Position numbers and translations under genes: made by a program. A DNA stretch of 64,000 nucleotides from an uncultured Syntrophaceae bacterium (GTDB lineage: Bacteria; Desulfobacterota; Syntrophia; Syntrophales; UBA2192), in contig CAZPCN010000012.1 of assembly GCA_964585095.1 (NCBI GenBank), forward strand, positions 3,430 through 67,429, written 5' to 3'. This document shows, piece after piece, positions 5,526-53,033 of this stretch. The notes under the pieces were generated by a model, which saw only the letters and a list, made by a program, of their open reading frames with translations, did not search any database and was not told the DNA's origin. Position 1 is the first letter of the stretch. Each line of letters starts with the position of its first letter.

Positions 5526-5628
<103 letters not shown>

Positions 5629-6927: not shown

Positions 6928-7022
6928 TGGCGGAGAGAGGGGGATTCGAACCCCCGGTGCACCTTTAAGGGGCGCACACACGATTTCCAGTCGTGCCCAT
7001 TCGGCCTCTCTGGCATCTCTCC
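6928..7022 (-). tRNA. tRNA-Ser (anticodon GGA)
   Basis: Acceptor GGAGAGA/TCTCTCC-G-CCA, anticodon arm CACGA-CTGGAAA-TCGTG, long variable arm, T-loop GGTTCGAATCC. Confidence 0.97.
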
Positions 7023-7222: not shown

Positions 7223-7317
7223 TGGCGGAGAGAGGGGGATTCGAACCCCCGTGAGAGCTGTTAGGCCCTCAAACCGATTTCGAGTCGGTCCCGTTATGAC
7301 CACTTCGGTATCTCTCC
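7223..7317 (-). tRNA. tRNA-Ser (anticodon CGA)
   Basis: Same acceptor stem, anticodon arm ACCGA-CTCGAAA-TCGGT, long variable arm, encoded CCA. Confidence 0.97.
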
Positions 7318-11119: not shown

Positions 11120-11479
11120 ATGTCGGGGACGGCGAGAATCAAGAATCGAAACGTCAAGGTCGACAGGGCCCGGAAGGCGCTGGGCATCTCCGGGCAGGCA
11201 ACGGCCGAGGAGGCAAGGAAGCAATACCGGGAACGGGCCAAGCAGTGGCACCCCGACATCAACCCCGGAGAAGAAGCCCATGCCCGGATGCAGGAGCTCA
11301 ACGAGTCGTATGCCTTCCTGATGAAGGAGGAGTTCGGCGTTCTCGACCCGTGGGACGAATACGACCGGTGGTGGTGGCGGCAATTCGGCAACGACCATAT
11401 CTGGGGAACCTCTTTCCCCGAAGGCGAGGAAGGAAGGGCACCCCAAAGGAGATCGAAAAACAGGCTGGAAGAAAAATAG
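11120..11479 (+). CDS. Small J-domain (DnaJ-like) protein
   Basis: ARKALGI...ARKQYRERAKQWHPD...MQELNESY with the HPD motif. Confidence 0.85.
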   Translation: MSGTARIKNRNVKVDRARKALGISGQATAEEARKQYRERAKQWHPDINPGEEAHARMQELNESYAFLMKEEFGVLDPWDEYDRWWWRQFGNDHIWGTSFPEGEEGRAPQRRSKNRLEEK

Positions 11480-11587
11480 TGAAACGCCGGCCCCTGTGAA
11501 GCCGGCGTTCCTTCGTTCAATCCTTTGCAATCCCCCGGATCGGACGACCCCGGGGGTTTTTGTTTCACAGTCCTTTGACCTGCGGTC

Positions 11588-12901
11588 TTACGCCGTTCGC
11601 TTCGTCGAGTCGATGTATTCGACGATCTTCTCGCCGAGCCTCTTCACGGTGTACTCGAAGCGGTCCTCGTCGGTCTCCAGCAACGTGAGGCGGAAGCCCA
11701 GAAGCGGCGTGAAGAAGGACGTGAGCGGAACGACGCAGATGCCCGTCGAGCCCAGCAGGTAGTAGACGAAGCGCTTGTCGAGCTCGATGTTGTCGGAGGT
11801 GAGCTTCTCGATGAACTGCCGGATCTCCGCGTTCTCGATGGGCAGGGTCTGCCTGTTGTTGAGCACGGCTTCGTTGAAGACGACGGTCATGTAGAAGGCG
11901 CCGTCGGTGCGGTTCACCACGATGTAGGGAACGTTCTTCAGGATATTGAAGGCCATGTTCGAAAGCTTCTCGTAGCGGCGGATACGGCTGTTCAGGTATT
12001 TTTCGTACTCCGGGTGCGTCATGACCTTCGGGATCGACATCTGGGGCAGCGTCGTCGAACAGACCTCGGACATCTTCTGCTGCAGGATGGCGTTCGTGTA
12101 GCGCTGGAACGTCTCGTCCTTGTCGGCGTTGTAAAACTCGAGCCACCCGCAACGCGCCCCGGGCCAGGGGAATTCCTTCGAGATGCCCTTCATGCTCATG
12201 GCGGGGACGTCCTCGACGATGTCGGAGAGCGGGCAGGCGACCTTCCCGTTGTAGACCATGTTGATGTAAGTCTCGTCGAAGACGAGGAACAGGTCGTTCT
12301 CCTTGGCGATGCGGACAATCCGCTTGAGCGTCTCCTCGTGGTAGACGAAGCCCGTGGGGTTGTCGGGGTTGATGACGAGGATCCCCACGATGGCCTTGTG
12401 GTTCTTCACCTTCATCTCCAGCTCGTTCATGTCCGGGTGCCACTTGTGGTAAGGGTTCATCCGGTACGTGTTGGGCGGGAACGAGGCGTGGAGCACCTCG
12501 GCCAGGAAATGGGTCGAGTAGGTCGGCTCCGGGAGGATGACCCGGGCGTCCACACGAATCGCGCTGTAGCACCGTGCAATGGCATCGCCAAGCCCGTTGA
12601 AGAACAGGATGTCGTCGGGGGTGATCTGCGTCTTGCCGCGCTTGTTCACCAGGTCGGCCAGGAATTCGCGCGTCGCATCCATCCCCTGCGTGGGGGAGTA
12701 ACCGAACGACTTGTTGTCCCGGATGATCTCGACGAGGACTTCCTTCATCCACTCCGGGATCTGCTCGCCCTTCTGGACGGGGTCCCCGATATTCTCCCAG
12801 GTCACCTCCATGCCGCAGGCCTTGAGACGGTTCGCCACGCCGACGATGTTGCGGATTTCGTAGGTCAGCCCGTTGCCTCTCTTGGCGATGTCGAATCTCA
12901 T
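11588..12901 (-). CDS. PLP-dependent class I/II aminotransferase (AlaA-like)
   Basis: LTYEIRNIV, ENIGDP, GYSPTQG, INPDNPTG, DETY, KGISKEFPWPGARCGW. Confidence 0.9.
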   Translation of the reverse strand: MRFDIAKRGNGLTYEIRNIVGVANRLKACGMEVTWENIGDPVQKGEQIPEWMKEVLVEIIRDNKSFGYSPTQGMDATREFLADLVNKRGKTQITPDDILFFNGLGDAIARCYSAIRVDARVILPEPTYSTHFLAEVLHASFPPNTYRMNPYHKWHPDMNELEMKVKNHKAIVGILVINPDNPTGFVYHEETLKRIVRIAKENDLFLVFDETYINMVYNGKVACPLSDIVEDVPAMSMKGISKEFPWPGARCGWLEFYNADKDETFQRYTNAILQQKMSEVCSTTLPQMSIPKVMTHPEYEKYLNSRIRRYEKLSNMAFNILKNVPYIVVNRTDGAFYMTVVFNEAVLNNRQTLPIENAEIRQFIEKLTSDNIELDKRFVYYLLGSTGICVVPLTSFFTPLLGFRLTLLETDEDRFEYTVKRLGEKIVEYIDSTKRTA

Positions 12902-13224
12902 GATGATCCTCTCCCGGCGCGATCAGGCGCCCCTCGAAGAAACGGCCCGTGACAAATCCGTTCCGCCGGGTCGTCCGCGAAGCGGGTCATAAAAACGGCC
13001 GCATCTTCGAGGAAAATGTAGAATATTCAGCTCGTTTATTACAATTGAGGGAAAATTTCTACTGAATTTTTTGCCCCCTCCCCGGGCGGGCGGAAAAGGG
13101 GCCCCGCCCGGACGCGCTGCGCTGACGGGTTTGAGGGGTGCGGGACACATCCGTGTTGAAATCTCGCGGTGATTGGTGTAGTCTCAGCGTGCGGTTTCGC
13201 AAACAGGCACGGACCATTCTCACC

Positions 13225-13460
13225 GGATGACTGACCGGGATGCCCGGCAGCCGGCCGAATCAGTGCAAAACCTCTGGCAAGCGGCAGCGATGGCTACGGA
13301 GCGCGTTCTGGCAAGCCCGAAGTTCTACCTGTCCCTTCATGCGGCACCCGCCGGCTTGAGCGCAGGCGTTGGTACCGGGGGGCGGCCCCTCGCAGGCCCG
13401 CCCCGAACCCAGTCCCCTCCCTTCTCCCCTCCCGCGCCGCGCAGGCAAACTCACAGGAGC
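13225..13460 (+). promoter_or_regulatory. Degenerate glycine-riboswitch-like leader of gcvT
   Basis: Glycine-aptamer-like words in order: GGATGA, GGCCGAA, GCAA, AACCTCT-GG-CAAG, then GGAGCG...CCGAAG and AAACTCACAGG. Several core positions deviate. Confidence 0.35.
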
Positions 13461-13465
13461 TTCCC

Positions 13466-14560
13466 ATGAAAAAGACCCCGCTGTACGAGCGGCACCTCGC
13501 CCTGGCTGCGACCATGACGGAGTTCGGCGGATGGGCCATGCCCGTCCAGTACACGAGCGTCATCGACGAACACCGGAACACGAGGACCCTAGCGGGCCTG
13601 TTCGACGTCTGCCACATGGGCGAGATCGAGGTCCGGGGGCCCCAGGCGCTCGAGCTGCTCCAGTGGGTGATGAGCCGCAACCTCGCCAAACAGCAGATCG
13701 GGGAGATGAAGCTCTCCGCCATCACCAACGAAAAGGGCGGCATCATCGACGATGTGACCGTCTACAAGCGGGGCGACGAACGGTACATGGTCGTAACCAA
13801 CGCGGCGACTCGGGAGGGCGACCTGGCTTGGATCCTGAAGGCGAAGGCGGACCTCGGGCTCGACAGGGCTTCTGTGACCGATCTCTCCGACACGATCGGC
13901 AAGGTGGACATCCAGGGGCCGCTGGCCCAGAAGATTCTCGAGGAGATCGTCGAGGGCGACCTGGCGGCATTGCGCTTCTATCACGCCATGGACACCCGCG
14001 TGGCCGGGATGCCCGCCTTGGTCTCGCGCAGCGGCTACACCGGGGAGGACGGCTTCGAGGTGTACACCGAGGCAGGGCGGATCGGCGAGATCTGGGATTT
14101 GCTGATGAGCCTCGGGGATGCGCACGGCCTGAAACCGGCGGGGCTGGGAGCCCGCGACACGCTGCGCCTCGAGGCGGGGATGATGCTCTTCGGGCACGAG
14201 ATGTGCCAGACCGTGACCCCCTACGAGGTGATTTACGGATGGATCACCGATCTGGACAAAGCATTCATCGGCCGGGACGCGCTCAAGAAGCAGAAGGAGG
14301 ACGGGGTTCGCAAGAAGCTCGTCGGCTTCGAGATCGTCGATCGGGGCATCGCCAGACACGGCTACCCGGTCCTGGCAGACGGGGAAAAAGTCGGGGAAGT
14401 CACCTCGGGGACCTTCTCGCCCACGCTGGGCAAGGCGATCGGGCTGGCCTTCGTGCCCGTGCAGCACAAGGAACCGGGAACGGTGCTGGAGATCGAGATC
14501 CGAACCCAGCGCGCGAAAGCGAAGGTGGTGCCCCTGCCCTTTTACAGGAGGAAGAAGTAG
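13466..14560 (+). CDS. gcvT: Glycine cleavage system aminomethyltransferase T
   Basis: MKKTPLYERH, FGGWAMPVQY, GLFDVCHMGE, SRSGYTGEDGFE, GLGARDTLRLEAG. Confidence 0.97.
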   Translation: MKKTPLYERHLALAATMTEFGGWAMPVQYTSVIDEHRNTRTLAGLFDVCHMGEIEVRGPQALELLQWVMSRNLAKQQIGEMKLSAITNEKGGIIDDVTVYKRGDERYMVVTNAATREGDLAWILKAKADLGLDRASVTDLSDTIGKVDIQGPLAQKILEEIVEGDLAALRFYHAMDTRVAGMPALVSRSGYTGEDGFEVYTEAGRIGEIWDLLMSLGDAHGLKPAGLGARDTLRLEAGMMLFGHEMCQTVTPYEVIYGWITDLDKAFIGRDALKKQKEDGVRKKLVGFEIVDRGIARHGYPVLADGEKVGEVTSGTFSPTLGKAIGLAFVPVQHKEPGTVLEIEIRTQRAKAKVVPLPFYRRKK

Positions 14561-14629: not shown

Positions 14630-15025
14630 ATGGCCAAACCCAGTCCCGATGACCGAAAGTACACGAAAGAGCATGAGTGGGCAAAGGCAGACGGCGGCAC
14701 CGTCACCATGGGCATCACCGACCACGCCCAGGAGCTCCTCACCGACGTGGTCTACGTGGAGCTTCCCGCGGTGGGCCGGAAGGTCAAGCAGGCGCAGCCG
14801 ATCGCCGTCGTGGAGTCGGTGAAGTCCGTGTCGGACATCTTCGCCCCCGTCAGCGGGGAAGTCGTCGAGGTCAACCAGGCCCTCGAGGCGACGCCCGAGC
14901 TTGTCAACAAGGACGCTTTCGGGGAGGGCTGGGTCGCCAGGATCAGGATGGAAGCCCCCGCCGAGCTCGACGGGCTCATGACGGCGGAACAGTACGAGGA
15001 GCACATCAAGGCCAATCCGCACTGA
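14630..15025 (+). CDS. gcvH: Glycine cleavage system H protein
   Basis: YTKEHEW, GITDHAQELLTDVVYVELP, VESVKSVSD (lipoyl Lys). Confidence 0.97.
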   Translation: MAKPSPDDRKYTKEHEWAKADGGTVTMGITDHAQELLTDVVYVELPAVGRKVKQAQPIAVVESVKSVSDIFAPVSGEVVEVNQALEATPELVNKDAFGEGWVARIRMEAPAELDGLMTAEQYEEHIKANPH

Positions 15026-15087: not shown

Positions 15088-16413
<1,326 letters not shown>

Positions 16414-16468
16414 TCGACGGAAGCGGAACGTCGCACCCCGTAACGTTACAAGCACATTCGAGGTGGCC

Positions 16469-17911
16469 ATGGAACTGATTTTCGAGAAAAGCCGGCCCGG
16501 CCGCACGGCGGGCAGCATCCCGGGAAGCGACGTCCCCGAGACGGCCCTGGAGACCTTGATCCCCGCCGGCCTCCTGCGCGACGGGCTGAATCTGCCGGAG
16601 CTGGCCGAGGTGGACATCGTCCGGCACTACACGCGGCTGGCCCGCCGCAATTTCGGCGTCGACGTGGGATTCTACCCCCTGGGCTCCTGCACGATGAAGT
16701 ACAACCCCAAGGTCAACGAGAACGTGGCCCGCCTGGAAGGTTTCACGGCGCTGCACCCTTACGCGCCGGAGGCCTTCGCCCAGGGCAACCTCCAGCTCCT
16801 GTACGAGCTGGCCGGGTCCCTCTCCGAGATCTGCGGGATGGACGATTTCACCCTCCAGCCCGCAGCGGGCGCGCACGGGGAGCTCACGGGCGTCATGATC
16901 ATCAAAAAGCACTTCGAAAGAAAGGGCCGGAAGCGATCCACGATCCTGATCCCCGACACGGCCCACGGAACAAATCCTGCATCCGTTGCCCTCTGCGGGT
17001 TCCAGGTCGCCACGGTCCGCTCCAATGCCGAGGGGGGCGTCGACATCGCGCATCTACGGGAGCTGATGACGAAGGATGTGGCGGGACTCATGCTCACGAA
17101 CCCCAATACCCTGGGGTTCTTCGAGCGGAACATCGAGGAGGTGGCGGACATCGTTCACCGCAAGGGCGGGCTACTCTACTGCGACGGGGCCAACGCCAAT
17201 GCGCTCGTGGGCGTCACGAGGCCGGGAGACCTGGGTTTCGATATCATCCAGCTCAACCTCCACAAGACCTTCTCGACCCCGCACGGCTGCGGCGGGCCGG
17301 GCAGCGGACCCGTGGGCGTGAAGAGGCACCTCGTGCCCTTCCTGCCCGTGCCGCGGGTCGTGAAAAAAGGGAAGCGGTACCGCTGGTCCGAGGAGTTCCC
17401 TCACTCGATCGGGCGGGTCCGGGCGTTCTACGGCAACTTCAACGTCATGGTGAAGGCCTACACGTACATCCGCGCACTTGGAGCCGCAGGGATCCGGAGG
17501 GTCAGCGAGAACGCCGTGCTCAACGCGAACTACGTCATGGCGCGGCTGAAGCCCTACTACAGGCTGGCCTATGACCGGGTCTGCATGCACGAATGCGTCT
17601 TCACGGGGGAGAAGCAGGTCCAGGAGAGCGGCGTGCACACGACGGACATCGCCAAGCGGCTGCTCGACTACGGGTTTCACCCCCCGACGATCTATTTCCC
17701 CCTGATCGTCCGCGAGGCCATCATGATCGAGCCCACGGAAACGGAAAGCAAGGAAACGCTGGACGAGTTTTGCGAGGCCATGATATCCATTGCCCGGGAG
17801 GCGAGGGAAAACCCCGAACTCGTGAAGTCGGCGCCCCTGACGACACCGGTCAAGCGCCTCGACGACGTGCTGGCGGCAAGGAAGCCCGACGTCTGCTGGA
17901 CCCTCTGCTAG
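16469..17911 (+). CDS. gcvPB: Glycine dehydrogenase P protein subunit 2
   Basis: [47 protein letters not shown]. Confidence 0.97.
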
Positions 17912-17964: not shown

Positions 17965-19779
17965 ATGAAGAGCTGGCTGAACTGGACAAAAGAACAACTC
18001 GCGGAAGAACTCTGGGCGACAGAGCCTCGAATTCGTCAAATAATGAGAAATTCCAGGCATATGGAAGAGGCGCGGCATCTTCTTTTCGATTATCTCAATC
18101 GCCTCGAGCGCGACCTGTTCAACATGCGCTCCGACACCTACTTCGTCAATCTCAATATTGTGGAGAAACGAAACGCCAAGGAGTGCATCCGGGTGCTCTC
18201 CAACACGATGCGCACCGAGAACGAGCAAGTGACCCATTTCTCCCCCCTCCAGGTTCTCTACGACCTGGCCCAGGGGAAGAAGGAGGCGCTCGACCAGGTC
18301 TCGGAGGCCTTCCTCTGCGAGTACCTCGCCCTGTTCCTGGGCATCACGGGCAAGGGCGGCAAGCACCTCAAGCGCAAGGAAGTCTTCCAGATGAAGGACG
18401 GCCGTGAGGCCGCCATCGCCCGCTCGACACAGCTCGACGACTATGCCTGCAACATCCGCAGGCATTTCCGCCGGTACAAGACAGGCTACGACAAGGCCCT
18501 GCTGCGCGAGCGGAAGGCCCTCAAGGGCGACATCCTCCGGTTCTTCGGGGCCACGGAAAAGGACTGGCAGGACCACCGCTGGCACCTGCGCCACATCATC
18601 AAGGACCTGGACACGATCCGGGCCCTCGTGAAGCTCGAGAAGGACGAGGTCAGCGGCCTCACGAGCGCCGGGAAGAACAACATCCCCGTCGAGATCACCC
18701 CGTATTACCTGTCGCTCTTCCGCAAGGAGGGACGCTCCGACTACGACCGGGCCATCCGCGCCCAGGTCGTCCCGAGCACCCTTTACTGCGAGCAGGTCGC
18801 CGAAAGCCGCCGTAAGGGGATCGACCTGGACTTCATGGGGGAGAAATCCACGAGCCCCATCGACGGCGTCACCCGCCGCTACCCGGAGATCCTGATCCTC
18901 AAGCCCTACAACTCCTGCCCCCAGATCTGCGTCTACTGCCAGCGCAACTGGGAGATCAAGGGCATGGACGACACGGTCATGATGGCCAAAAAGAAGGTGA
19001 AAGAAGCCCTGGGCTGGATCGAGGAAAACGAGAGCATCACCGAGGTGCTCATCACGGGAGGCGACCCGCTGACCCTCGGCAACGACTATCTCGACTGGAT
19101 CATCGGCGAAGTGGCAGCCATCAAGCACGTCGAGCGAATCCGCATCGGGACGAGAATCCCCGTCACCCTTCCCTTCCGTGTCGAAGAGGGCCTTCTGGAA
19201 GTCTTCCGGAAGTACCACGCGTGGGGAAAGCGGGAGCTGGCCATCGTCACCCACTTCGAGCACCCCACGGAGATGACCCCCGATTCCCTGGAGTGCATCC
19301 GCAAGATCAAGAACTTGGGGATGAACGTGTACAACCAGCAGGTCTTCACCTACTACAACAGCCGGCGGTTCGAAACGGCCCTGCTGCGAAAGACGCTCAA
19401 GCTCTCCGGTGTGGACCCCTACTACTCCTTCAGCACGAAGGGCAAGGAGGAAACGATCGATTTCCGGGTCCCCATCTGCCGCATGGAGCAGGAGCAGCTG
19501 GAGGAAGCGCGCTTGCTGCCGGGCCTGGTGCGGACGGACGAGCCCGTTTTCAACGTCCCGAGGCTGGGGAAGGTCAACCTGCGCGCCTGGCAGGACCACG
19601 AGATCGTCAACATCCTGCCCGACGGGCGCCGGATATACCGGTTCTACTCGTGGGAGGTCCGGCTCGTCACGGCGCTGGATTACCTGCACACGGATGTCTC
19701 CATCTACGACTACCTCAAACGGCTGGCCGAGGACGGGGAGAACATCAGCGACTACTCCTCAATCTGGTACTATTTCTAA
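17965..19779 (+). CDS. KamA-family radical SAM/PLP aminomutase homolog with long N-terminal extension
   Basis: DWQDHRWHLRH, ITPYYLSL, VTRRYP, CPQICVYCQR (CxxxCxxC), EVLITGGDPL, RIRIGTRIPV, THFEHP, VFNVPRLGK. Confidence 0.88.
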   Translation: MKSWLNWTKEQLAEELWATEPRIRQIMRNSRHMEEARHLLFDYLNRLERDLFNMRSDTYFVNLNIVEKRNAKECIRVLSNTMRTENEQVTHFSPLQVLYDLAQGKKEALDQVSEAFLCEYLALFLGITGKGGKHLKRKEVFQMKDGREAAIARSTQLDDYACNIRRHFRRYKTGYDKALLRERKALKGDILRFFGATEKDWQDHRWHLRHIIKDLDTIRALVKLEKDEVSGLTSAGKNNIPVEITPYYLSLFRKEGRSDYDRAIRAQVVPSTLYCEQVAESRRKGIDLDFMGEKSTSPIDGVTRRYPEILILKPYNSCPQICVYCQRNWEIKGMDDTVMMAKKKVKEALGWIEENESITEVLITGGDPLTLGNDYLDWIIGEVAAIKHVERIRIGTRIPVTLPFRVEEGLLEVFRKYHAWGKRELAIVTHFEHPTEMTPDSLECIRKIKNLGMNVYNQQVFTYYNSRRFETALLRKTLKLSGVDPYYSFSTKGKEETIDFRVPICRMEQEQLEEARLLPGLVRTDEPVFNVPRLGKVNLRAWQDHEIVNILPDGRRIYRFYSWEVRLVTALDYLHTDVSIYDYLKRLAEDGENISDYSSIWYYF

Positions 19780-19820
19780 GACGCGACTGACCGGGGGCGC
19801 TGGCGCAATCATGCGGATGT

Positions 19821-19905
19821 TGAGGAGGTGATCGGGTAAGAACGCCGGACAAGGGTTCGACCTGTTGTCTGCCCGCTGCTTCTCCAACCTTCTTACCTTC
19901 TTACC
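19821..19905. repeat. Octamer inverted-repeat element
   Basis: GGGTAAGAAC...TTCTCCAACC-TTCTTACC-TTCTTACC; same family as 30412 and 47421. Confidence 0.6.
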
Positions 19906-19955
19906 GTCTGCCAGCAATCCGTTCAGGCCCGCGAGCAACAAGAGACGTAATCCCC

Positions 19956-20801
19956 ATGCTTCAGAGAAAGCCCGACTGGCTCAAGGTCCCTCTGCCAAAT
20001 TCGCGCGAGTTCATCGAGGTGCAGGGGCTTCTGGCCCGCCTGGATCTCCACTCCGTCTGCCAGGAAGCCCGGTGTCCCAACATGGGGGAGTGCTTCCGCT
20101 CCGGCACGGCCACCTTCCTGATCCTCGGCAGCCTCTGCACCCGAAACTGCCGTTACTGCAATGTCCGGCACGGGCAGCCCGCGGCGGTAGATGAGTCCGA
20201 GCCCGAGCGCCTGGCCGAGGCCGTGAAGGCTCTCGGGCTGCACTACGTCGTCATCACTTCCGTCACGAGGGACGATCTTCCCGACGGCGGGGCGCGGATA
20301 TTTGCCCGGTGCATCGATGTGCTTCGCCGGGAGGTTCCGGGCTGCCGGGTGGAGGTTCTGATCCCTGACCTGCAGGGGAACCGCTCCGCCCTCGAAACGA
20401 TCCTCGAGTCGCAGCCCCATGTTTTGAATCACAACATGGAGGTGACCCGCAAGCTTTTCGCAGATCTGCGACCCCAGGGCGACTACTCCCGCTCACTCGA
20501 GCTTCTGCGCCGCACCGCGGAGAGCAGGCGCCCCGTGATCACAAAGTCGGGCTTCATGATCGGCCTCGGGGAAACCCGGGCCGGCATTCTATCCCTGCTC
20601 GACGATCTGGCAACCGCGTCCTGCGCAAGCCTCACGATCGGCCAGTACCTGCAGCCCTCGGTTGCCCACTGGCCCGTCATGAAATTCTACACCCCCGAGG
20701 AGTTCGAAGAATTCAGGCGGGAGGCCCTGCAGCGCGGGTTCCGGACCGTCGTGGCCGGACCGCTCGTCCGCAGCTCCTATCGCGCGGCGGAACATGCCTA
20801 G
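19956..20801 (+). CDS. lipA: Lipoyl synthase
   Basis: RKPDWLKV, CQEARCPNMGEC (CX4CX5C), CTRNCRYC, C-terminal RSSY. Confidence 0.96.
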   Translation: MLQRKPDWLKVPLPNSREFIEVQGLLARLDLHSVCQEARCPNMGECFRSGTATFLILGSLCTRNCRYCNVRHGQPAAVDESEPERLAEAVKALGLHYVVITSVTRDDLPDGGARIFARCIDVLRREVPGCRVEVLIPDLQGNRSALETILESQPHVLNHNMEVTRKLFADLRPQGDYSRSLELLRRTAESRRPVITKSGFMIGLGETRAGILSLLDDLATASCASLTIGQYLQPSVAHWPVMKFYTPEEFEEFRREALQRGFRTVVAGPLVRSSYRAAEHA

Positions 20802-52936: not shown

Positions 52937-53033
52937 CGCCTGGCAGCCCTGCAGCCCTATCCCGCGTGTTCCCGGGACGTAGGCCATGAGGCTTTGCGCC
53001 CCATCCTTTCGGACGGTTTGCCCTTTTCAGGCG
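52937..53033 (-). ncRNA. Cyclic di-GMP-I (GEMM-I) riboswitch
   Basis: Minus strand CGCCTG-AAAA-GGGCAAACC-GTCC-GAAA-GGAT-GGGGCGCAAAGCC...GGGCTGC-CAGGCG: GNRA loop, conserved GGCAAACC and GCAAAGCC, P1 CGCCTG/CAGGCG. Confidence 0.9.

Follow-up and report, generated by a model that had tools for sequence, protein, structure and literature searches.

Here, we describe kamX, as we call the KamA-like gene at positions 17965 to 19779 (plus strand, stop codon included) of a 64,000-nucleotide stretch, referred to as the window, from the genome of an uncultured Syntrophaceae bacterium (GCA_964585095.1, contig CAZPCN010000012.1). Judged by profile scores and phylogeny, its 604-residue product represents a distinct long-form clade within the KamA family of radical S-adenosylmethionine (SAM)/pyridoxal phosphate (PLP) aminomutases. 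The two lysine-binding Asp residues of lysine 2,3-aminomutase (LAM) are replaced by Lys and Asn, as in glutamate 2,3-aminomutase (EAM), and five further residues are of the EAM type; therefore, the substrate is predicted to be a free amino acid that is not basic and is most probably acidic. That KamX is an active, glutamate-type radical SAM/PLP 2,3-aminomutase feeding catabolism or osmolyte synthesis is, in our estimate from sequence comparison, an even call. Glutamate is the best candidate for its substrate, with a likelihood that we place at or marginally short of even on the basis of the pocket and the gene contexts; the substrate, the reaction direction and the chemistry that follows it are what we infer. 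To our knowledge, only a few substrates of radical SAM/PLP aminomutases have been established, namely lysine, glutamate and arginine.

The kamX clade is widespread among strict anaerobes, in which it carries generic database names only. Full-length homologues of ~600 residues with 58 to 94% identity were found in a search of 5.8 billion proteins; their hosts are Syntrophales, Methanocella, Methanoperedens and DPANN archaea. Two family-specific peptide patterns match 511 loci among GTDB species genomes. Further hosts are Omnitrophota, Chitinispirillaceae, UBP16 and one Clostridiales metagenome-assembled genome (MAG). In an even sample of Syntrophales, kamX was found in 54 of 151 genomes and 19 of 62 genera. 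Homologues are entered as "KamA family radical SAM protein" or, by the Joint Genome Institute (JGI), as "lysine 2,3-aminomutase"; the latter label is probably wrong, and the analysis below would correct this likely mis-annotation. No paper describing the clade was found in the literature searched.

Catalytic core and substrate pocket

Several lines of evidence support KamX as a KamA-family protein that retains the cofactor sites. First, KamX scores 303.4 bits on the KamA family model TIGR00238 (cut-off 199.2), and the match covers model positions 3 to 331 of 331. Second, the CPQICVYC radical SAM [4Fe-4S] motif (CxxxCxxC; C318/C322/C325, positions 18916 to 18939 on the plus strand, as are all features of kamX given here), the GGD motif of the family (G365-G366-D367, 19057 to 19065) and the PLP lysine K536 are invariant in 63 KamX sequences, and the cluster cysteines and K536 align with the corresponding motifs of LAM and EAM. 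By analogy to the LAM structure, we take the GGD motif to have a role in SAM binding. C74 and the three cluster cysteines are the only invariant Cys residues in this set. Third, an AlphaFold2 model built from the 63-sequence alignment (predicted local distance difference test [pLDDT] 84, predicted template modelling score 0.84) has LAM of Clostridium subterminale (2A5H) as its top Foldseek match in the PDB (E 1.5e-20, 408 of 410 target columns, 24% identity, TM-score 0.70 normalised to the target), with no other entry near. Similarly, phmmer aligns residues 195 to 505 with residues 11 to 306 of 2A5H. Conservation spans the full length of the protein, with a mean column identity of 66% in the 63 sequences. 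An alternative in-frame start at 17593 would lengthen the gene into gcvPB and is supported by no homologue; all homologues begin at the same Met-Lys.

We compared the pocket in a MAFFT alignment of 24 KamX proteins, LAM-type paralogues and ten EAMs. The EAM references are the ten top scorers (719 to 737 bits) obtained when the EAM equivalog model TIGR04368 was run against 201 genomes from a Firmicutes-type phylum; the scores in that search form two groups, one of 650 to 737 bits comprising the true EAMs and one of ~480 to 527 bits comprising LAM-type proteins. A segment of PYY, 11 residues and [H/D]F is present in all three sets. K492, in K492-G493-K494 (19438 to 19446), aligns with the EAM Lys and LAM Asp293, and N530, in the stretch from N530 through K536 (19552 to 19572), aligns with the EAM Asn and LAM Asp330. 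The earlier note on this DNA, made from the sequence alone, had read a Lys at the Asp293 position without gaps, and an Asn at the Asp330 position with the PLP lysine kept; both assignments were borne out, the former also by phmmer against 2A5H, in which the PYY...F segment is ungapped. The spacing from Asn to Lys has to be corrected, however: it is six residues in KamX versus seven in LAM and EAM, the glycine loop being one residue shorter. Five more positions are EAM-type and not LAM-type, i.e., T296 (Asp in LAM), R304 (His), Q326 (Thr), T364 (Ser) and F489 (Tyr). K494, N530 and K536 are invariant across the clade, and R327 aligns with LAM Arg134, presumably the residue that binds the α-carboxylate. 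By alignment, the pocket of KamX is not a lysine pocket and resembles that of the glutamate enzyme.

These residues bear directly on the suggestion, implicit in the JGI name of the homologues, that kamX encodes an ordinary lysine 2,3-aminomutase. In that case, the aminotransferase and the β-keto acid cleavage enzyme (BKACE) that accompany kamX in Syntrophales (see below) would be Kat and Kce of lysine fermentation, and the partner BKACE is indeed 45% identical to Kce (2Y7D) and reaches 321 bits on the Kce model. We nevertheless find this hardly credible. Both lysine-binding Asp residues are replaced, KamX scores 206.5 bits on the LAM/AblA equivalog model TIGR03820 (cut-off 525.4), and the genome already has an Asp/Asp LAM-type KamA paralogue on contig C28 (5086 to 6057, minus strand; 433 bits on the EAM model, typical of LAMs). 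Moreover, the BKACE falls below the Kce cut-off and has an Arg where Kce has a Glu. That no α subunit of a lysine 5,6-aminomutase was detected in the genome (PF09043, KamD) is a weak point in this argument, because the same search was silent in all control genomes, too. A further KamA-family paralogue, with Glu/Asp at the two specificity positions, is encoded on contig C8 (52418 to 53386, plus strand). Neither of two other known activities is indicated by profile scores: KamX reaches 160 bits on the arginine mutase equivalog model (cut-off 600) and 124 bits on TIGR03821, the model for EpmB of elongation factor P β-lysylation (cut-off 369).

KamX proteins fall into a single clade in a maximum-likelihood phylogeny of the catalytic core, and ~6 substitutions per site separate this clade from a joint clade of LAM and EAM. 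This very long branch from all characterized KamA enzymes, together with the loss of the YPDR motif, a 5-residue insertion, and the existence of catalytically dead relatives that retain both the N-terminal domain and the C-terminal tail, could mean that KamX catalyzes a radical SAM/PLP reaction that is not a 1,2-amino shift, or that its role is in part non-catalytic and draws on its terminal additions. We regard this as improbable: every cofactor motif is invariant in the active clade, the predicted fold matches LAM across the whole of 2A5H, and the partner enzymes, which would convert a β-amino acid to a β-keto acid, fit a 2,3-shift.

The most conspicuous addition is N-terminal. The earlier note had described an extra region of ~200 residues; this holds approximately relative to LAM (~185 residues) and not relative to EAM, over which the excess is only ~145 residues. 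The helical segment of residues 147 to 195 (18403 to 18549) is common to the EAM N-terminus, and the TIGR04368 alignment begins with model position 3 at residue 147. Ahead of it, residues 1 to 135 (17965 to 18369) form a predicted all-helical domain with an invariant C74/R76 motif (NAKECIRV). Modelled alone by AlphaFold2, this region gives an eight-helix domain with a pLDDT of 89.6. A Foldseek search of this isolated model against the PDB returned no significant structural relative (best E-value 0.9), and a Pfam scan at E-values up to 1 found no domain within the N-terminal 190 residues. Conserved residues in the N-terminal part include W17, C74, R76, S93, E119, G126, R153 and D158. At the other end, the C-terminal region (19573 to 19776) lacks the LAM-type Zn cysteines and closes with a family-specific tail, ...DYxSIWYYF, of which SIWYYF is likewise conserved. 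The N-terminal domain may serve regulation or substrate gating.

A profile of the N-terminal domain matched 186 proteins among 1.84 billion representatives, and the full-length matches listed are ~600 residues long, like KamX. Apparent fusions of the domain to other partners proved to be acidic, low-complexity extensions or, in one case, a long protein that is probably a gene-call fusion, and were set aside. Three matches (P0165, P0179 and P0181) are divergent relatives that have none of the three cluster cysteines (e.g., SPQSMVYPQRNWE) and no PLP lysine while keeping the N-terminal helical domain and an ...NIWF(H/Y)Y tail; two of them bear acidic, low-complexity N-terminal extensions of ~300 residues. 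These three proteins are probably pseudo-enzymes with a non-catalytic role.

The gcv-lipA operon

kamX lies in a cluster of genes for the glycine cleavage system and lipoate synthesis, all on the plus strand: gcvT (13466 to 14560), gcvH (14630 to 15025), gcvPA (15088 to 16413), gcvPB (16463 to 17911), kamX and lipA (lipoyl synthase, 19956 to 20801), which starts 176 nt downstream of kamX. All five neighbors match NCBIfam equivalog models above cut-off, confirming the position between gcvPB and lipA given in the earlier note. No site was detected between gcvPB, kamX and lipA in a scan for promoters and terminators, and at Rfam gathering thresholds there is no glycine riboswitch ahead of gcvT (12950 to 13465) and neither a glycine riboswitch nor another RNA element in the gcv-kamX-lipA operon. 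In a public metatranscriptome (run X25), contigs of at least 99% identity span the genes from gcvT to lipA at comparable depth. RNA contigs extend over the end of gcvPB to 17948, 17 nt before the kamX start, and two contigs (19485 to 19909 and 19542 to 19951) cross the kamX stop codon, the latter ending 5 nt before the lipA start. Because RNA contigs cover gcvT through lipA, including the kamX-lipA spacer, kamX is expressed, very probably on one transcript with its neighbors, allowing for possible carry-over of DNA in RNA libraries.

Two further observations concern the kamX-lipA spacer and lipA. One X25 contig has seven other letters in place of 77 nt of the kamX-lipA spacer (19840 to 19918), which is probably strain-level indel variation. 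The genome also has a second lipA (contig C172, 1580 to 2407, minus strand) that is 56% identical to the kamX-adjacent copy; several genomes of the same genus likewise have two lipA genes, and the copy in the operon may be specialized.

The linkage is real and old within Syntrophales. lipA lies directly downstream of kamX on the same strand in 38 of the 54 Syntrophales carriers, from six GTDB families, with gaps of 19 to 628 nt, and is not adjacent to kamX in the Syntrophales families f2, f6 and f20. Outside Syntrophales, all loci have kamX elsewhere, and among 80 loci retrieved the order gcvPB-kamX-lipA is confined to Syntrophaceae-type loci. The conservation of the linkage, on which the earlier note had partly staked its interpretation, therefore extends across six families of the order and stops at its border.

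The same note had suggested a link to glycine or lipoate metabolism or a protein-bound substrate such as GcvH. In this scenario, KamX would act on a protein- or cofactor-bound substrate of the glycine cleavage/lipoate system, e.g., a residue of GcvH, with the N-terminal domain as a docking module; the co-transcription of kamX with gcvPB and lipA, the recurrence of the lipA adjacency across six families, and an N-terminal domain with invariant polar residues and no known fold are all in keeping with it. However, the distribution of kamX argues strongly to the contrary. We searched 18 further carrier genomes, 15 from outside Syntrophales and three from Syntrophales with kamX unlinked to gcv. gcvH is absent in nine of the 18 and below cut-off in one more, and lipA is below cut-off in 10 of the 18, including all eight DPANN genomes. 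The eight DPANN carriers and the Clostridiales MAG are without both genes, and Methanocella is without gcvH. Incompleteness of MAGs could account for single missing cases, not for all. In addition, kamX sits elsewhere in f2, f6, f20 and every non-Syntrophales locus, and the conservation of R327 at the position of Arg134 fits a free amino acid. Because gcvH and lipA are missing in many carriers, GcvH or the lipoyl arm is a very unlikely substrate. The location of kamX after gcvPB and before lipA reflects inheritance and co-transcription within Syntrophales and does not speak for a lipoate or GcvH substrate, and it cautions that a place beside gcv and lipA is by itself no guide to function.

Elsewhere in the window, Rfam matches at gathering thresholds comprise a c-di-GMP-I riboswitch (52939 to 53032), a small signal recognition particle RNA (5527 to 5624) and two tRNAs (6931 to 7022 and 7226 to 7317), all on the minus strand.

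Partner genes and a putative route for the product

In Syntrophales, genes for the uptake of a substrate and for the conversion of a β-amino acid recur beside kamX. At 13 loci of one Syntrophales family, genes for a TAXI binding protein, a DUF1850 protein, a fused DctM permease and an Ord-family (2,4-diaminopentanoate dehydrogenase) amine dehydrogenase, and then kamX, follow one another on one strand. The top solved relatives of the TAXI protein are 8U79 and the Thermus protein of 1US4/1US5 (E about 1e-66); we take the Thermus protein to have bound glutamate in 1US5. At two loci (L041 and G332), TRAP, class-III aminotransferase, BKACE and kamX genes lie on one strand, and at four others (L032, L033, G337 and G347) a convergent BKACE-aminotransferase pair directly follows kamX-lipA. 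Both K492 and Q492 forms of kamX adjoin aminotransferase-BKACE pairs. In the genome studied here, the corresponding genes are unlinked to kamX, with the aminotransferase-BKACE pair on contig C5 (93405 to 95831, minus strand) and a TRAP-amine dehydrogenase cluster on contig C45 (11368 to 16076). Within these, the BKACE gene spans 93405 to 94226, the aminotransferase gene 94473 to 95831 and the gene of the Ord-like dehydrogenase 11368 to 12372. A TAXI importer and enzymes converting β-amino to β-keto acids fit a C5-dicarboxylic amino acid as substrate.

kamX and the BKACE also occur together when they are not neighbors. Counting BKACE orthologues at 69% identity or more in the 151 Syntrophales genomes, 37 genomes have both genes, five have only the BKACE, 17 have only kamX and 92 have neither (odds ratio 40, p 7e-17). 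By genus, the respective numbers are 17, 1, 2 and 42 (odds ratio 357, p 4e-12). Within each of the families f6, f10, f13 and f20, some genera have both genes and others have neither; therefore, the co-occurrence exceeds one inherited event. The partner BKACEs (those of contig C5, L041, L032 and L033) read ITGSR where Kce has ITGAE. Presumably, the Glu of this Kce motif contacts the amino group of the substrate; if so, the Arg in its place would suit an anionic side chain and provides a lead on the compound that is cleaved.

We suggest the following mechanism, modelled on that of LAM. At rest, PLP would be bound to K536. The [4Fe-4S] cluster held by C318, C322 and C325 would reductively cleave SAM, and the resulting 5'-deoxyadenosyl radical would abstract the C3 hydrogen of a substrate that forms an external aldimine with PLP, so that the amino group migrates from C2 to C3; conversion of L-glutamate to β-glutamate is the leading candidate reaction. 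In Syntrophales, including the genome studied here, the β-amino product would most likely be converted to a β-keto acid by the class-III aminotransferase or the Ord-like amine dehydrogenase, for which the gene on contig C5 and that on contig C45 beside the TAXI-TRAP importer are the candidates. The BKACE would then split the β-keto acid with acetyl-CoA, and 3-oxoglutarate would give malonyl-CoA and acetoacetate; this is the general BKACE reaction, and BKACE enzymes accept many β-keto acids, including malonate semialdehyde (PMC11961710). In the archaea and further phyla that have no BKACE, the product would probably accumulate, e.g., as an anionic compatible solute alongside K+.

Taken together as a physiological proposal, which we put forward tentatively and at clearly less than even probability, kamX, the class-III aminotransferase and the BKACE would constitute a hitherto undescribed, B12-independent route in syntrophs from glutamate via β-glutamate and 3-oxoglutarate to malonyl-CoA and acetoacetate, and kamX alone would be the missing source of β-glutamate or a related solute in archaea, including DPANN. 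2-Oxoglutarate could enter this route through transamination cycling. If KamX is a second, independently evolved glutamate-type aminomutase, an aminomutase, an aminotransferase or amine dehydrogenase, and a BKACE would make up a new amino acid fermentation module in the syntrophs that drive methanogenic digesters, and kamX would be a candidate gene for β-amino acid solutes in archaea.

Outside Syntrophales, the BKACE is absent from all 15 carrier genomes examined, and genes for monovalent-cation transport or solutes repeatedly adjoin kamX; in archaea, these are often genes for K+ or Na+/H+ transporters. TrkH adjoins kamX at L066, L068 (Methanocella) and L070, a Na+/H+ exchanger does so at L061, L064 and L079, and at L074 an OtsA-OtsB trehalose fusion and an amylase-family gene are near. 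In two Methanoperedens genomes and one Micrarchaeota genome, a gene for a small SAM-dependent methyltransferase (Methyltransf_11/25/31) comes right after kamX (L064, 10067 to 10825; L079, 10067 to 10819; L078, 9887 to 10612). This methyltransferase might modify a β-amino acid product into a betaine-type solute.

Several observations weigh against a glutamate-type aminomutase with these roles. With respect to the enzyme, KamX scores 241 bits on TIGR04368 (cut-off 650), and in the catalytic-core tree EAM groups with LAM (support 100/100) and not with KamX; therefore, the Lys/Asn pocket is ancestral or convergent and not inherited from EAM. On this evidence, KamX should not be filed in the EAM family, so that of the glutamate-aminomutase signature reported in the earlier note, the Lys/Asn pair stands, joined by the five further residues, and family membership does not. 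Position 492 is Lys in this genome and in archaeal and other lineages and is Gln or Met in two Syntrophales subclades; in the tree, K492 forms are basal and the Q and M forms are nested inside Syntrophales. Because many members have Gln or Met, position 492, as the alignment has it, cannot be a universal specificity determinant. Moreover, the YPDR motif of LAM and EAM reads YP(E/Q)I(L/V) in KamX, the loop with the PLP lysine (residues 519 to 543) is poorly modelled (pLDDT below 50), and this reading accounts for neither the invariant N-terminal domain nor the adjacency of kamX to lipA in 38 of 54 carriers. With respect to the genes around it, the co-occurrence statistics ignore kinship, having no phylogenetic correction, and kamX and the amine dehydrogenase co-occur weakly (odds ratio 2, p 0.05), for which reason we dropped the Ord-like enzyme as an obligate partner. 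Among the models, the partner BKACE scores closest to that of Kce from the lysine pathway (321 bits given above, cut-off 382), and at 20 canonical EAM loci an amine-dehydrogenase partner was found at none and TAXI-TRAP at one. Finally, NMR (nuclear magnetic resonance) labelling is reviewed as having excluded a glutamate aminomutase route to β-glutamate in marine methanogens (PMC1224877). Because of this labelling result, the solute role of the product in archaea, which concerns taxa other than the one studied here, is only a hypothesis.

Some of these points would be accommodated if KamX were a 2,3-aminomutase for another free amino acid such as 2-aminoadipate, glutamine, or a small neutral one, e.g., alanine. 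2-Aminoadipate would lead through 3-oxoadipate to succinyl-CoA and acetoacetate; alanine would lead through β-alanine and malonate semialdehyde to formyl-CoA and acetoacetate, touching the C1/tetrahydrofolate pool served by the gcv genes. The separate clade and the score below the EAM cut-off, the tolerance of position 492 for Lys, Gln and Met, and the breadth of β-keto acids that BKACE enzymes take are in line with such a substrate, and the conserved gcv/lipA context wants some explanation. The partner BKACE matches the 3-oxoadipate-type NCBIfam model at 234 bits, but this is below the cut-off of 350. Against it, too, seven pocket or near-pocket residues are specifically EAM-like and the TAXI binding protein most resembles that of Thermus 1US4; the alanine variant, in particular, leaves the pocket Arg of the BKACE and K494 and R304 of the mutase unaccounted for. 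We consider a substrate of this kind unlikely, though deserving of serious attention. An acidic substrate in place of lysine, as proposed in the earlier note, is thus plausible: the pocket is glutamate-like and not suited to lysine, and the gene contexts fit, all of it at the level of sequence.

Relation to known aminomutases and to lysine fermentation

Among known systems, LAM of C. subterminale provides the only solved structure with the fold predicted for KamX. The two share the CxxxCxxC motif, the GGD motif and the PLP lysine, and their mechanism is presumably the same. KamX differs from LAM in the replacement of both lysine-binding Asp residues, in the absence of the C-terminal Zn cysteines and in its ~185 extra N-terminal residues.

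The genes that accompany kamX in Syntrophales recall the Kdd/Kce/Kat part of lysine fermentation, in which an aminomutase yields a β-amino acid that is converted to a β-keto acid and cleaved with acetyl-CoA by a BKACE. By contrast with that pathway, the mutase pocket of the kamX set is not specific for basic substrates, the dehydrogenase belongs to the Ord family and is not Kdd, and a B12-dependent 5,6-aminomutase is not in evidence.

The closest parallel in the pocket is EAM, reportedly described by Ruzicka and Frey in 2007 from Clostridioides difficile (Eam). One Firmicute locus (L115; G023, contig C1, 872889 to 892686) holds two canonical EAM genes ~4.5 kb apart followed by TAXI-TRAP, and its DctM is 54% identical to that of the kamX operons. 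EAM and KamX are both radical SAM/PLP enzymes of the KamA family with Lys and Asn at the Asp293 and Asp330 positions of LAM; TRRYP, CQR, TGGD and PYYxF are common to both, as is an N-terminal helical extension relative to LAM. KamX differs from EAM by the extra 145-residue helical domain, the 5-residue insertion (WGKRE), a 40-residue C-terminal tail, the PLP loop shorter by one residue, the replacement of YPDR, and a position 492 that is not fixed as Lys. If KamX does prove to be a second, independent glutamate-type aminomutase, its Lys/Asn pocket would be a case of re-use, either convergent or ancestral.

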